A stretch of 64,000 nucleotides of DNA from Eledone cirrhosa (GCA_964016885.1 OZ024750.1:16182001-16246000), one strand, 5' to 3'. Counted from the stretch's first letter, positions 22-52,563 are shown. Numbers and translations: made by a program. Notes: a model not told the origin generated them from the sequence alone.

Positions 22-193
22 CTAGCGCCGTCTGGCGGATTCCAGCAGAAGTAGCGGAGGACAACTTCCAAAGCATTTCTGGCGATGGCCGTAACCAGGA
101 CAGTGCTTCCCCCTGCACTCTGCAGGAATTTGAAATAGGTGAAAAATATATAGATTTTCGCCTATGTAAGTGGGCTGATTAACCTCATTTGCA
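22..193 (-). mobile_element. Degenerate copy of the octamer-TATA-hammerhead element (homologous to 52286-52460)
   Basis: Aligns by eye with 52286-52460 (gcgccgtct.gcgg.ttcca.cagaa ... gctgattaacctcatttgca). The hammerhead core has decayed to CUGGUUA-CGGC/GCCA-GAAA. Confidence 0.7.
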
Positions 194-230
194 CATACAT
201 ACATACATACATACATACATACATACATAC

Positions 231-695
231 ATGATGGCTGCCCCCTCGTTATCGAGTATGGCCATTGCACAATATACCATTATTAATAATTATTAATTAA
301 TTCTATCGTGCAATGCTGTGCGTGAAGATATTTTTTAAAGTGTGAAAAGACTGTGCACTGAGCCAATCCCACTCTCTGAGCGACAGTAGCTATAACCCGA
401 AAAGAAGAAAAGATCAACATCATCGGTAACTACTGAGCCGCAGGTTTTATGTCGGAGTTATCCCAGTTTCCTGAGTTGCCTTCTCCTAGAAGAATGCCCT
501 GGCAAAGGCTAGGGGTCCTTCACTCCCAGTGGTTTAACCGCGCGGTACATGTGTATATACATATTTACACACTTTCGGATGGCCGTTGACTCTTATGAGT
601 TCTTCCGCCCTTTGTCAGGTTTTGTTATTTGTCCTGCAGGGTGTCCAAAAGCACCCTCCTGACTGTGATGAGAAAGCTACTCCACTTACCGCGCC
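231..695 (-). mobile_element. RTE-derived non-autonomous retroposon, family A, in (CATA)n
   Basis: Carries the RTE 5'-UTR-like motif CTAGGAGAAGG.AAC. The 3' end TACTCGATAACGAGGGGGCAGCCATC runs into (ATGT)n. Other copies at 4959-5252, 9693-9986 and 46997-47503. Confidence 0.65.
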
Positions 696-799
696 CATAC
701 ATACATACATACATACATACATACATACATATATACATACATACATACATACATACATACATACATACATATATACATACATACATACATACATACATA

Positions 800-1407
800 C
801 ATGGTGGCTGCCAACTCGTTTTCGAGTACGGCCACTACTTTATATCCATGTAGGAGAACCCCTACCGATGCGCTGAACGAATGTGACTTTAGTCCAGCCA
901 GCGACTTGAAAACTCTGGTACAAAGACTACACTTGTGACCATTATTGACACATAGTGCAGGGCCCATGGTACCATGTGATGACAAGTGCAGAGAGATCTC
1001 CAGATATAAAGCAATGCCTGTGCTGTGAAGCTTTTATAGTGAGCAAAGGCACTGCACAAAGCCAGTCCCACTCTCTTAACCAAGATGATATTTACCAAAA
1101 AGAAGAACAGGTCAACATCATTGGATACCATCAGGATTGCAGGTGTTATATCAGAGTTTTCCTTCTCCTAGAATTCTGCCTTGACAAAGGCTAAGGGGTC
1201 ATCTCTCCCGGTGATTTTGGATGGCTATTGACTCTTAAGAGCTCCCTTGCCCTTTGACAGGTTTTGTTTTTAGTCCTGCAGGATGTCCAAAGTCACCCTC
1301 CTCACCAAGAAACCTTGGTGGGGTTGCCAGTTTAGTCGCCAACGACCCGACCATGAGACAGGTTGTACTGGGATACATGTTACCAGTAGCACCAACTGGT
1401 GACCTGA
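800..1407 (-). mobile_element. RTE-derived non-autonomous retroposon, family B (~610 bp), in (CATA)n
   Basis: RTE-like 5'-UTR motif TCTAGGAGAAGGAAAACTCTG, a residual C-terminal C2H2 finger (C..CTRVFKSLAGLKSH) and a CTCG-AAAA-CGAG 3' hairpin followed by (ATGT)n. Seven copies in the window. Confidence 0.75.
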
Positions 1408-48519: not shown

Positions 48520-48915
48520 TAAGGACCTATCAAGAATATATACATTTATAATTTCCTTCCTGCTGTGACTAACTCCAACAGTTTACACTAGCGGAGTATG
48601 TGGGATGATGAATTTTATAGGCTCTGTGAAAAGAGGGTTACCCTGGCACATATTCTATCAAGATGTAAAACAGTACTTTCCCAAGGAAGGTACTCATGGC
48701 ACTTACTAATATCAAGAGAAACGCAAGAATGAACAAAGACGGGGGAAACCAATACCACCATTCAGGTTTGTAAGTGAGGGATACAAAAAAACCTCTATCA
48801 CAGTTAGAATAACATGCGGCTTTCTATAAATGGCCCATTCATGTGATATGAAGTTTGACCAGGGAGAAAGGTTGCAGTTTTCCCAGGACGTCCACACAAT
48901 CCTGGGGCCAAAAGG
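48520..48915 (+). mobile_element. Decayed Hero/NeSL-like RLE non-LTR retrotransposon fragment
   Basis: Translates YNFLP....LH*...RLCEKRVTLAHILSRCKTVLSQGRYSWH, then DMKFDQGERLQFSQDVHTILGP. This resembles the CCHC / QGRYxWRH / LRPD region of Hero-clade ORFs. Confidence 0.65.
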
Positions 48916-48959
48916 TGAAGAAGAGAATTCTGATAGAAATCTCCATCCCGTGGGAAGAA

Positions 48960-49845
48960 TAATTGTTTCTACTTTTGGCACAAGGCCAGCAATTACCCAG
49001 TACATTACTGGTACTTAATGTTATCGACCCCAATATTCCGCAAATAACTAGATAATTATATCCGAACTAAAATATCCAGATGGCTAAAACTAATGTTTCT
49101 GAAGCTGTTAAAGGAATAAAAAAAAAAACATACCTTAACTCTTTTATGACCGTATTTCTTATGAAATACACTCTATTTTAATTAATTAATAATTGTTTCT
49201 ACTTTTGGCACAAGGCCAGCAATTACTCAGTACATTACTGGTACTTAAATTTATCGACCCCGTAAGGATGAAAGGCAAAGTTAACCTCGGCGAGATTTAA
49301 ACTCAGACTGTAAGGAGAGGTAACTATGCTGGAAAGCACGGTGTCCGACCCTCTACTGCCAATGCGAACAAGCCTTCAAGCGAGAGAGTGCCAGTACTAA
49401 GACTGTGTACAGGGAGAAAGGATGGTAGGCATGGCTATTTTCAGTTGAGGTGGGTTGCCGGGGATTTCCAGTTTAATCGATATAGAAAATGCTCACTGAC
49501 ATTGGAATGACAGAAAAGACACTTGTTGACTGAGAGAAAGAACAAATTGGAAGGAAGGGGAAGACCAGTAATTTGTCCACCATTCCTGACCTACCAGCAG
49601 AGAGGTGTTACGGTTCATAGTTCAAACACCCAACGAACGTTGGTCAAAGCTATATTTACCGAAATAACTGTTTCTACTTTTGGCAGCAATTATCCCAGTG
49701 CATAACTGGTACTTTATTTTATCGACCCCGTAAGGATGAAAAGCAAAGTTAACCTCGGCAGGATTTGAACTCAGACCATAAAGGGGCATAACTTTGCTGC
49801 AAAACATGGCATCCGAGCCTCTACCGATACTGCCAATCCACCGCC
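48960..49845 (-). mobile_element. SINE copies and fragments (48960-49030, 49190-49360, 49667-49845); further pieces at 36510-36655, 45055-45100, 51925-52146 and 60022-60092
   Basis: Same SINE body. Confidence 0.8.
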
Positions 49846-52194
49846 CATATATTTACCGAAATAACGAAATAAAAACAGAACGGCCCCTAAAATATCAAAA
49901 CAAATGACTAAAATTGACGATTGGAAATGTCGAAATCTTTTGAATGGGGAAGGAAAAGGATTGTGAAATGACCAGTAAAATGACCTGGAGTGACCCCCCC
50001 CCCCCCCCACCAAAAAAAAATGACATGGAGTTACATAGAAAACCTGGTGTGATGCATAAAGTGACCTGACACATAAACTATCCTTAAGTGACCCATAAAA
50101 TGACATGTCAGTAATTGGTAACTGAGAGTTTATGTGATGTTTTTCCCGAGAAAAGATGTTAATTTGTGTTTTTCTATTTCTCCAGTAGAATTGTGGCGAT
50201 GGTGTTGGTGGTGGTGGTGGTGGTGGTGGTGGTGTTGGCGTTGGCAGTGGTGGTGGTGGTGGTGGTGGTAGCAGTGGTGACAGTGTTGCTTGTGGTGGTG
50301 GTGCTGGCGTTGGCGTTGGCAGTGGTGGTGGTGGTGGTAGCAGTGGTGACAGTGTTGCTTGTGGTGGTGGTGTTGGCGTTGGCGTTGGCAGTGGTGGTGG
50401 TGGTGGTGGTAGCAGTGGTGACAGTGTTGTTTGTGGTGGTGGTGTTGGTGGTGGCGTTGGCAGTGGTGGTGGTGGTGGTAGCAGTGGTGACAGTGTTGCT
50501 TGTGGTGGTGGTGTTGGCGTTGGCGTTGGCAGTGGTGGTAGTGTTGCTTGTGGTGGTGGTGGTGGTGGTGGTGGTGGTGGATGGTGGTGTTGGTAGCAGT
50601 GATGGTATTGTTGGTTGTGGTGGTGGTGGTGGTGGTGGTGGTGGTGGTGGTGTCGGTAGCAGTAGTGGTAGTGTTGCTTGTGGTAGTGGTGCTAGTGTTG
50701 CTGTTGGTAGCAGTGGTGGTAGATGAAGTGGGGGATGATGATAGTGGTGTAGGGATGTAGTGATTGTTTATAATGAGAGGATGGTGGAAGTGGTGGTGGT
50801 GATGAGTGTGGTGGTCGTGGTAGAGAAAGTAGGCGGAGAGTGCCAGTTTGTGATAGTGGTTCTTGGTATAGTAGTCGTGGTGGTGAGAGTGGTATGTGTT
50901 GATGATGGTGATGGTAACTGTGGGAGGATTGTGATGGTAGTAATGATAGAAGTGGTGGTGGTTTTAATCTGGTACTAAGGTGTACCTATTCTATGACATG
51001 TGGCGTGTTGTTCAGATCCACAGAACAACACGCAACTTTGGATTCACGTTTCAAGCAAAATGGCATTATCACACACACACACACGCACGCACGCACACAC
51101 ACACACACACACACACACACACACACACACACACACACACACACACACACACACACACACACACACATACACACACACACACACACACACACACACACAC
51201 ACACACACACACACACATATATATACATATATACACACATACATATAAATATTTATAATGAGCATCACAATGTACCTAAATATATATATATATATATATA
51301 TATATATATATATATATATATATATATATATATATATATATATATATATATATATATATATATATATATATATATATAGTGATATATATATATAGTGATA
51401 ATAATAAATGTGAAAACTAAAATCCAAAGAGGGCTCGATAAGGATAAATATATATCAAATATATAAGAACCCTAGAGCAAATATTTATTAAAATAACAGA
51501 TTAAAGTTTAGGCAAAGAATTGCTGCTTTCACCCTTAACGGGATCTTCAGAAGATCCCGTTTAGGGTGAAAGCAGCGATTCTTTCCTTAAACTTTAAGCT
51601 GTTATTTTAATATATATATATATATATATATATATATATATATATATATATATATATATATGAAAATAGGGAGAAAGAGACGATTATGAGGAAGAAAAAT
51701 GTTATATATATATATATATATATATATATATATATATATATATATATACAACTATATACACATACATATAAATATTTATAATGAGCATCACAATGTACTA
51801 ATATATATATATATATATATATATATAGTTGTATGGTTGCATGAAAAATGCGTCCGTAAGCTGTATGCCGGTTGAGCACGCGATGCTCACGTAGAGCAGA
51901 GTCGGAGACGAATTCATATACTAAGCGGGTCGATAAAATAAAGTACCAGTAATGCACTGGGTAATTGCTGGCCTTGTGCCAAAAGTAGAAACAATTATAT
52001 AATATATTATATATATATAATATATTATATAATTTCTACTTTTGGCACAAGGCCAGCAATTACCCAGTGCATTACTGGTACTTTATTTTATCGACCCCGT
52101 AAGGATGAAAAGCAAAGTTAACCTTTCGGCAGGATTTGAACTCAGAATAGCAAAATATAATATAATATAACATAATATAATATATATATATTAA

Positions 52195-52563
52195 GATTTA
52201 GCTTCGGCATAGCTGTATACATACATGTATGTGAATTTCATGTATCGGAAGACATTTTGAAAGCCCAGCTATGAATATTGAAAGTCCAGCGCCGTCTAGC
52301 GGGTTCCAACAGAATCAGTGGGGGCAACAGTCTATAAGCATTTCGAGCTTCTGGCCCTCATCAGGACTGTGTTTCCCCTTCTCTCTGCTAGAACTTGATT
52401 CAAGCGAAATTATATAGTTATTTCGCTCGTGTAGCTGAGCTGATTAACCTCATTTGCATAAGAAGCTGTAAAAGTTGGCTTAACTTAAAAGTAGAAAAGT
52501 AGAATTAGAATTTAGCTCTTCGGCATAGCTGTATACATACATGTATGTGAATTCCGTGTATCT
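52195..52563 (-). mobile_element. 316-bp terminally redundant unit with octamer, TATA and hammerhead (retrozyme/pLTR-like)
   Basis: ~50-bp direct repeat at 52195-52246 and 52510-52562; octamer 52452-52459; TATATA 52411-52416. Confidence 0.75.
52327..52370 (-). ncRNA. Type I hammerhead, canonical core
   Basis: ACAGUC CUGAUGA GGGC-CAGAA-GCUC GAAA UGCUUA UA GACUGU, with a perfect 6-bp stem I. Confidence 0.92.

Follow-up and report, generated by a model that had tools for sequence, protein, structure and literature searches.

Why do several loci carry an octamer and a TATATA box at a fixed spacing ahead of a hammerhead ribozyme, and could these boxes form a promoter? In the window (the whole stretch of DNA analysed, 64,000 nt), a coordinate check found the five octamer/TATATA pairs of the original prediction at their positions, all on the minus strand. 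TATATA had been placed 34–35 nt after the octamer, and the gap from the octamer end was measured as 34 (A), 35 (B), 34 (C1), 34 (C2) and 35 nt (D). The hammerhead core, placed 40–52 nt downstream, follows the end of TATATA by 48, 52, 40, 40 and 46 nt respectively, and the GAA...TTC inverted repeat described around TATATA is present at the window loci. The A octamer reads GTGCAAAT and the A hammerhead core is mutated; only C1 and C2 are fully intact among the five. No coding frame was found across these loci. Their features are as follows.

55..105, minus strand: A decayed hammerhead, mutated core, family D copy, approximate ends
147..152, minus strand: A TATATA, within a short inverted repeat
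175..178, minus strand: A YCAG (PSE-like) box, 26 nt ahead of TATATA
187..194, minus strand: A octamer, first base altered where the (TATG)n tail joins
26524..26553, minus strand: B hammerhead, U3-A8 core, stem III interrupted at 26524 by an opposite-orientation element
26606..26611, minus strand: B TATATA, start predicted at 26581
26635..26638, minus strand: B YCAG box, 27 nt ahead of TATATA
26647..26654, minus strand: B octamer
26704..26768, plus strand: B 5' inversion, part of the promoter region copied in opposite orientation
43518..44484, minus strand: family C tandem array, 2 x 479-bp units
43828..43872, minus strand: C1 intact type I hammerhead, stem III palindromic, cleavage predicted between 43835 and 43834
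43906..43911, minus strand: C1 TATATA, centre of a 16-bp palindrome, start predicted at 43881
43934..43937, minus strand: C1 YCAG box, 26 nt ahead of TATATA
43946..43953, minus strand: C1 octamer
43835..44313, minus strand: predicted 479-nt monomer from cleavage site to cleavage site, containing a T8 run and the C1 putative promoter
44307..44351, minus strand: C2 intact type I hammerhead
44385..44390, minus strand: C2 TATATA, start predicted at 44360
44413..44416, minus strand: C2 YCAG box
44425..44432, minus strand: C2 octamer
44482..44674, plus strand: C array, 5' end, part of a unit in inverted orientation
52190..52574, minus strand: family D copy, made up of one unit and a partial repeat of 70 nt
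52327..52370, minus strand: D type I hammerhead, core intact, stem III imperfect
52411..52416, minus strand: D TATATA, start predicted at 52386
52440..52443, minus strand: D YCAG box, 27 nt ahead of TATATA
52452..52459, minus strand: D octamer
56247..56616, plus strand: 5'-truncated family C copy without promoter, beginning 14 nt before the predicted start, absent from the original prediction

Repeat units and hammerheads

Judged by their sequence, the window loci are non-LTR retrozymes, with units of 280–500 bp in tandem or dispersed, type I hammerheads, (TA)n junctions and 5' inversions. Three diverged families had been proposed. The grouping itself held, with A and D forming one family (75% identity over 174 nt), C1 and C2 a tandem pair with a 479-bp period (98% identical) and B standing apart. 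However, eight representative copies are pairwise 46–80% identical; the families are thus homologous, and the five loci are not independent events.

Family C units (422–502 bp) occur in arrays, and copies of B, D, E and H show partial repeats. Among copies pre-selected for a core match, an intact type I hammerhead was parsed in 15/15 C, 20/25 E, 11/15 B, 4/4 G, 8/17 D/other, 1/5 F and 1/11 H copies. Stem III varies in sequence by family with its pairing kept, and is palindromic in B, C, D, E and F. Eleven type I hammerheads were parsed in the window; the upstream box is present in three (C1, C2 and D) and in none of the eight from other families. Rfam hammerhead models were absent among the best 150 of 406 window matches, and none reached gathering score in further scans; the matches listed included microsatellite-driven miRNA matches. 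The repeat-finder output for the window was dominated by microsatellites.

The copies bear a signature that would fit Penelope-type mobilisation: 3' ends at two internal sites, junctions with (TA)n, and inversions at the 5' end. In family C, 19/22 of the 3' ends fall at two YTTAT sites and 0 at the cleavage site, while 10 of 21 resolved 5' ends cross the T run into the putative promoter. Penelope-like fragments lie near three copies by sequence reading, with no relevant Pfam match, and no autonomous partner element was found in the loci examined around copies. The predicted circle folds with z = −8.9 against 40 shuffles, a value inflated by internal microsatellite palindromes.

Genome-wide occurrence and conservation of the module

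The fixed spacing, the hammerhead downstream of it and the stronger conservation of the motifs, all raised by the original prediction, were borne out beyond the window. ATGCAAAT-N33-36-TATATA has 36,790 genome matches against 6,644 for the reversed control, whereas the gap shifted to N37-40 gives only 8,783 against 6,430 in the whole genome. The full module (octamer, TATATA and a hammerhead core 30–62 nt further) was matched 25,904 times, and its reversed control 54 times. Family C contributes most to all these counts: on its own, the exact hammerhead pattern of this family yields 24,214 matches (0 in the control). Within the N37-40 excess, a cluster at 34.9 Mb was set aside as a minisatellite, and the gap-38 group as what is apparently the inverted flank of a different hammerhead element.

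Motif columns are better conserved than other columns in BLAST-found copies of D (0.95 vs 0.87, 30 copies) and of B (0.97 vs 0.87, 24 copies), with permutation p<1e-4 in both cases. Across families (46–80% identical), motif columns reach 0.94–1.0 against 0.29–0.54 for spacer columns, an identity that is partly circular among the representatives because E, F, F2 and G (4 of 8) were retrieved with a pattern requiring the motifs and because the families share descent. In contigs from four sequencing runs (kind unrecorded), one of which contributed nothing, 0 of 14 common variant positions in 311 nt fall in the 18 motif bases, as chance allows (about 0.4).

Promoters of host small-RNA genes

An octamer box lies at −76 to −79 in 7/9 host polymerase III promoters (three types of U6, MRP, U6atac and two tRNA-Sec) and is absent in 7SK and RNase P; it was seen at this position in 0/12 further dispersed U6 copies. 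The seven octamer-bearing genes start with G. In host polymerase III genes the octamer-to-TATA distance is 46–48 nt and the PSE-to-TATA distance 31–33 nt, measured from CC in six of the seven octamer-bearing genes. 7SK and RNase P combine T-run ends with a TCAG located 33 and 32 nt from TATA, respectively, for which reason the use of TCAG as a polymerase II mark and the view of RNase P as polymerase II-like were both dropped.

A YCAR box at −55 to −58 was found in 17/17 host polymerase II snRNA promoters, followed after 25–28 nt by a TATA-like box in 15 of them. The octamer is absent from U1, U2, U4, U5 and U12. The U3 genes, which we take to be transcribed by polymerase II, have an octamer-like box 42 nt before TATATA in 8/10 loci (40 nt in the other two), an A start and no U1-type 3' box in their 3' flank. 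The distance from the PSE-like to the TATA-like box separates polymerase II from polymerase III in the host genes (U3, U6, U1–U5), as it does with the insect PSEA/PSEB/TATA and plant USE/TATA promoters (PMC1761439, PMC9652321, PMC9841428); the difference amounts to 4 bp in insect snRNA promoters (PMC1761439).

Comparison of element boxes with host promoters

In the elements the octamer stands at −72/−73, YCAG at −56/−57, TATATA at −30 and A at +1, with the type I hammerhead 14–28 nt further on. The YCAG-to-TATATA distance is 26–27 nt in 8/8 family representatives (25–28 nt in host polymerase II genes) and the octamer-to-TATA distance 42–43 nt, with A as the start base. This octamer-YCAG-TATATA-A geometry is that of the U3 genes. 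The elements differ from the host genes in joining a polymerase III-gene octamer to polymerase II spacing, and only U3 does likewise among the host genes examined.

Because these are the boxes of host U3, U6 and spliceosomal RNA genes, the hammerhead repeats likely drive their own transcription. We propose, with a probability of about 0.6, that the retrozyme units carry snRNA-type boxes acting as an internal promoter that would recruit polymerase II and start about 30 nt after TATATA, and that this promoter would be copied with each circular monomer. The original suggestion that the elements have their own promoter, with a start just upstream of the ribozyme, thus gains support from the match to host small-RNA genes. 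Its snRNA-type lead pointed in the right direction and can likely be made precise, on present sequence comparisons, as a POU box, a PSE-like box and a TATA box with U3/polymerase II spacing.

Scored against the host polymerase II box, B, F and G reach 7–10 bits, within the host range (leave-one-out 6.6–21.8), and low values were obtained for C (2–3), D (−2.7) and E (−3.7 bits), as well as for U3 (−10 or lower). C, C2, F2, D and E fall below the host polymerase II range, though they outscore almost all 73 background octamer sites (fractions 0.00–0.04). An octamer and a TATA box alone can suffice for a promoter. The low scores of the YCAG box in C, D and E, and the several octamer-like repeats upstream in family G, would suit a generic polymerase II promoter like those of histone H2B or immunoglobulin genes, working without SNAPc. 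We regard this as very improbable: every one of the 8 representatives keeps YCAS at octamer+16, as far from TATA as in host snRNA genes, B and F have TAATCAG and TGTAT in common with U5 promoters, and the octamer-flanking bases match those of host small-RNA genes, if only modestly against background octamers.

The choice of polymerase was also considered. On the host polymerase III profile (host leave-one-out 12.7–25.6; polymerase II genes at most 2.8 bits), the 20-nt box scores 12–20 bits in 8/8 representatives, a score that includes the octamer used to find them. This would fit a functional type 3 polymerase III promoter in which the spacer is shortened and the multimers come from rare read-through of T runs. 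TCAG is compatible with polymerase III, as in 7SK and RNase P, D and G have no T5 runs, and in vertebrates a clear TATA box selects polymerase III (PMC9652321). Yet all measured host polymerase III genes have a spacing 4–6 nt longer than that of the elements, which are predicted to start with A and not with the G of the seven octamer-bearing genes, and T6–T8 runs occur in every unit of the largest family (9/9 family C tandem units). The terminator argument does not extend to D, G and some E copies, whose T runs do not exceed 4. We judge polymerase III transcription unlikely and keep polymerase II as the preferred reading.

A third explanation holds that the boxes are a relic of a captured snRNA-gene flank, or an RNA structure of the circle, and that the RNA comes from host read-through. 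Metazoan retrozymes seem to lack promoters and to depend on read-through according to a 2020 review (PMC7761336). In most families TATATA forms part of a hairpin that could matter as RNA, the predicted start falls within extended helix I, and genomic 5' ends do not cluster at this start (2/21 within 5 nt), which led us to abandon them as a start-site proxy. Against such a relic or structure stand the near-invariance of the motif columns relative to the spacer columns and the position of the start motif, which is constant with respect to TATATA and not to the ribozyme: A is found at TATA+30 in 8/8 representatives and 68/78 copies, while the TATA-to-core distance varies from 36 to 61. Family H, which has no BLAST similarity to the other families, moreover carries the same octamer and TATA with U6 spacing. 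This explanation therefore appears improbable. Counting against the preferred reading, a successful C subfamily, which accounts for 20 of the first 100 module matches listed, has lost 8 nt between TATATA and the RGCAG start motif. RGCAG was also considered as a splice acceptor and set aside, since B and F have no pyrimidine tract and the position of the motif is constant relative to TATA.

In family H, the octamer-to-TATA distance is 47 nt in 11/14 copies of that class, and G occupies TATA+30 in 7/14; a polymerase II box at octamer+21 found no support in the profile. Tentatively, animal retrozymes may have acquired snRNA-gene promoters from their hosts repeatedly, and with either polymerase geometry, U3/polymerase II in one superfamily and U6/polymerase III in the unrelated H. 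The genome would then hold some 26,000 dispersed POU-SNAPc-TBP sites, and an animal would possess a plant-like, spacing-based polymerase switch.

Proposed transcription and replication cycle

No 3' box was found in the 8 units scanned (best 8.3, against 9.5 for the lowest host gene), and no AATTAA box, located at about −89 in host snRNA genes, was seen in the aligned representatives. By its boxes, the unit resembles an snRNA promoter in its working, and it is not an snRNA gene.

In the proposed cycle, a POU protein on the octamer would help SNAPc to bind the YCAG box, and polymerase II, meeting no 3' box, would read through the next unit. Two hammerheads, probably dimerising via the palindromic stem III, would cut out a monomer that contains the promoter of the next unit, and a host ligase would close the circle. 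On a nicked (TA)n target, a Penelope-like reverse transcriptase would prime at YTTAT within the RNA and copy its way around the circle, taking the upstream promoter along with the element. If so, this explains how an upstream promoter survives retrotransposition, being carried inside the circle. An internal promoter would also bear on how animal retrozymes attain their high constitutive circular-RNA levels.

Relation to known elements

No description of the module was found in the main texts searched, few of which were subscription papers. The claim that this architecture is undescribed is nevertheless too strong, as newt satellite 2 and schistosome hammerhead repeats have reported internal promoters. 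The newt satellite 2 promoter reportedly has an octamer and no TATA, and the polymerase III promoter of the schistosome Sm-alpha repeats is said to be of the internal tRNA type.

Newt satellite 2 resembles the present elements in being a hammerhead tandem repeat of ~330 bp that is reported to have an internal promoter of the snRNA type and to be transcribed by polymerase II (Coats, Zhang and Epstein 1994, cited in PMC2220036, PMC6765202). It belongs to a distant phylum and is likened by description; the present module includes a TATA box, and its octamer and PSE-like box lie directly next to each other. In Sm-alpha, each unit likewise has a promoter followed by a hammerhead (Ferbeyre 1998, via PMC6765202, PMC2220036), and there too cleavage leaves the promoter at the monomer's 3' end, which makes tandem copies necessary; the promoter is reportedly a polymerase III one, in contrast to the upstream snRNA-type one proposed here.

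Metazoan non-LTR retrozymes, in the available text of Cervera and de la Pena 2020 (PMC7229834) and Li et al. (bioRxiv 10.64898/2026.07.22.740005), are alike in their non-coding units of a few hundred bp with a type I hammerhead each, copies that are either dispersed or in tandem, a low GC content, a predicted circle with extensive pairing and a proposed Penelope-like partner. That text describes no promoter for them, whereas the boxes found here match host snRNA promoters in sequence and spacing. Penelope-like pseudo-LTRs likewise occur as partial tandems, show 5' truncation and 5' segments in inverted orientation, use (TA)n or AT-rich targets, begin reverse transcription internally and carry a promoter in the pLTR (PMC8557442, PMC11167929, PMC6765202); they differ in that the present elements have no reading frame, and no autonomous element with the module was identified.

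The match of element boxes to host gene promoters is a new result, and hammerhead repeats with an internal promoter have a reported precedent in newt satellite 2. The putative promoter is here defined against the host's own genes by three boxes and a predicted start base and, if true, would place another animal group beside the isolated newt case. As a side result, the spacing rule (26–27 vs 31–33 nt) and the identified U6 promoters are useful for guide-RNA expression.

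The octamer–TATATA module in the window and in the genome

All five octamer/TATATA pairs that the original prediction had located on the minus strand were found in place, with gaps of 34, 35, 34, 34 and 35 nt (loci A, B, C1, C2 and D). A hammerhead core follows TATATA after 48, 52, 40, 40 and 46 nt, respectively, as claimed (40–52 nt), and the loci do form three families: A with D, the 479-bp tandem pair C1/C2, and B. Hammerheads are intact in C1 and C2; in A the octamer is altered and the core mutated, in B the ribozyme is truncated within stem III and in D stem III is imperfect. 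The octamer of A was clipped by a (TATG)n-tailed repeat (193–528) related to nearby non-LTR fragments. The octamer box is missing from eight further type I hammerheads of the window. A sixth locus belongs to family C:

56247–56616, family C copy without promoter

The source genome is 3.0 Gb long and rich in microsatellites. Across it, octamer-N33–36-TATATA matched 36,790 times versus 6,644 for the reversed pattern, whereas a shifted gap (N37–40) gave 8,783 versus 6,430. Requiring a hammerhead core left 25,904 matches versus 54 reversed, the enrichment that had been anticipated. Family C forms the bulk of module matches (its exact hammerhead pattern alone occurs 24,214 times); a pattern leaving it out (998 versus 0 reversed) revealed families E, F and G, and DNA similarity searches gave at least 44 D-like and at least 41 B-like matches (40 candidates scored for each). 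With pairwise identities of 46–80% among eight representative copies, the families carrying the module are, judged by sequence, a single old superfamily related by descent, and the counts reflect amplification. In family G (L166, L168, L171, L231), three or four tandem octamer-like repeats lie upstream of the module.

Promoters of host small-RNA genes

Host genes were taken from the same assembly, a single copy being retained for each distinct flank. The octamer-bearing polymerase III set comprised two single U6 genes, a U6 array, MRP, U6atac and two tRNA-Sec genes. These genes carry TATG(C/G)(A/T)AAT(G/T)AG at −76 to −79, TATA 46–48 nt on and a G start. The box is present in 20 of 26 array loci; in the other six (L007, L008, L010–L013) it is displaced by a common short repeat inserted immediately upstream of TATA. 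It is absent from 14 dispersed U6 copies.

None of 17 U1, U2, U4, U5 and U12 promoters has the octamer; all have YCAR at −55 to −58, followed 25–28 nt later by a TATA-like box in 15. A matching CC precedes TATA by 31–33 nt in 6/7 polymerase III genes, and 7SK (L302) and RNase P (L266), which have no octamer, carry TCAG 33 and 32 nt before TATA, respectively. These distances indicate that, at the sequence level, spacing and not box sequence separates polymerase II from polymerase III promoters. RNase P also has a distal TTACCTCCC box, found upstream of U1, U2 and U12 as well.

All ten U3 genes examined (of 15 matches; L303–L312) start with A and have a box resembling the octamer between −71 and −74; TATATA comes 42 nt after this box in eight and 40 nt after it in two. 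They also have a CRE-like ACGTCA; a U1-type 3' box is missing from their flanks, and long T runs are mostly absent. The host type 3 promoters (L001, L002, L003–L030, L097, L098, L268, L269) are compact, the octamer adjoining the PSE-like box on its upstream side, and offer candidate U6 promoters for guide-RNA expression.

A candidate snRNA-type promoter in the elements

In all eight representatives the octamer is followed 16 nt on by YCAS, TATA lies 26–27 nt further and an A stands at TATA+30; RRC|A occupies the predicted start in seven. Among 78 copies, many of them retrieved by patterns that fix the spacing, TATA lies at 42–43 nt in 71 and A at +30 in 68, the onward distance to the ribozyme being 36–61 nt. 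Retrozymes carrying a compact, host-matched putative promoter of snRNA type, in two spacings, are a real feature of this genome. We consider use of this module by polymerase II probable (about 0.6). A POU protein and SNAPc would bind adjacent sites of the element, and the short spacing would select polymerase II. According to the available parts of the sources, the two factors cooperate at human snRNA genes (PMC9652321), a 4-bp difference selects the polymerase in insects (57 versus 61 bp promoter blocks; PMC1761439), and distance does so in plants (PMC9652321).

Transcription by polymerase III, an unlikely alternative, would agree with the corresponding box profile, on which element scores lie within or near the host range; on the polymerase II profile only those of B, F and G do. 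No 3' box was found in eight units scanned, so that transcription would proceed from one unit into the next, and the RNA between two cleavage sites would include the next promoter. In family C this RNA also contains a T6–T8 run (9/9 true tandem units, two mixed rows excluded), matching in length the T5–T10 runs that terminate host polymerase III genes. These features, and the extension of 10/21 family C copies across the T run into the promoter, favour polymerase II.

Several observations count against the polymerase II promoter reading. The families share descent, and long T runs are absent from D and G. The loss of 8 nt separating TATA from the start motif did not keep one C subfamily (20 of the first 100 matches listed) from spreading, and family C 5' ends show no concentration at the predicted start (2/21 within 5 nt). 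U3 is presumed to be transcribed by polymerase II in Eledone cirrhosa, and its flank has no U1-type 3' box. A non-functional relic seems improbable. Among BLAST-found copies, motif columns are better conserved (0.95 in D, 0.97 in B) than the remaining columns (0.87); A/T columns outside the motifs stand at 0.89 (D) and 0.91 (B). TATATA lies within a hairpin in most families and host promoters mostly have none, which also counts against a promoter; part of the conservation may therefore be RNA-structural. The weak PSE-like scores of C, D and E count likewise and would suit a generic octamer–TATA promoter, which we regard as very improbable given YCAS in every representative.

A control search uncovered a second hammerhead group with U6 spacing (326 versus 10 reversed, including some strays of the first superfamily). 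BLAST found no similarity between its main family, H, and the other families:

G000:C1:21716276+, 22607354+, 55014000− and others (L201–L206, L217–L245), family H together with older relatives, TATA 47 nt beyond the octamer (exact U6 spacing)

T5–T8 runs lie shortly 3' of their ribozymes.

Nature of the elements

Every unit is non-coding and contains a type I hammerhead. Stem III pairing is retained despite family differences (ACTAGT in C; ATGCAT or ATGCGCAT in D and E; ACAATTGT in B; ACATGT in F; a five-pair stem in G). The family B core is U3–A8 in 21/25 copies, presumably a compensatory variant. Ends were examined in 30 family C loci chosen by ribozyme alone, with array-internal rows excluded. 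Of 22 resolved 3' ends, 19 lie at one of two YTTAT sites, where the element joins (TA)n, and not one lies at the cleavage site. The 5' ends, resolved in 21 cases, are spread between −11 and −322, counted from the core, with frequent inversions. This pattern fits Penelope-like structures (PMC8557442) and reverse transcription that starts internally (PMC11167929), as far as the available text of each describes them. By the definition in the accessible parts of PMC7229834 and bioRxiv 10.64898/2026.07.22.740005, the elements are non-LTR retrozymes. Fragments resembling Penelope-type reverse transcriptase or GIY-YIG endonuclease were seen by eye near retrozyme copies (L194:2016–3143, L148:2638–3105, L239:1669–2187); Pfam gave no relevant match to them.

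The architecture had been thought undescribed, which is true only in part. Available portions of PMC2220036 and PMC6765202 report an internal snRNA-type polymerase II promoter in newt satellite 2, a hammerhead repeat resembling in this respect what is predicted here, and an internal polymerase III promoter in schistosome repeats, unlike the polymerase II use that we favour. A plant LTR retrozyme promoter has been mapped (PMC12029980). No account of the octamer-PSE-TATA module itself or of the host spacing grammar was found in the article texts searched, although retrozyme sequences in supplements may carry promoters that went unremarked; the available parts of PMC13652810, PMC10886601 and PMC2655684 add nothing on the module.

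Other repeats in the window

1598–1639, 22823–22860, 28818–29079, 30002–30049, 55643–55684, 63149–63374, type I hammerheads without promoter box, long stem II, AT-rich stem I
4398–4763, 5375–5800, 9183–9599, 10109–10530, minus strand, 3' fragments of a non-LTR element with an RPDIV motif, among (TATG)n tracts
21810–22000 and some 20 further places, repeat of about 190 bp, very abundant

The promoterless hammerheads, often in inverted pairs, are probably Penelope-like terminal repeats. We take the RPDIV motif to mark the restriction-like endonuclease type; one such fragment had no Pfam match. The 190-bp repeat is probably a SINE.
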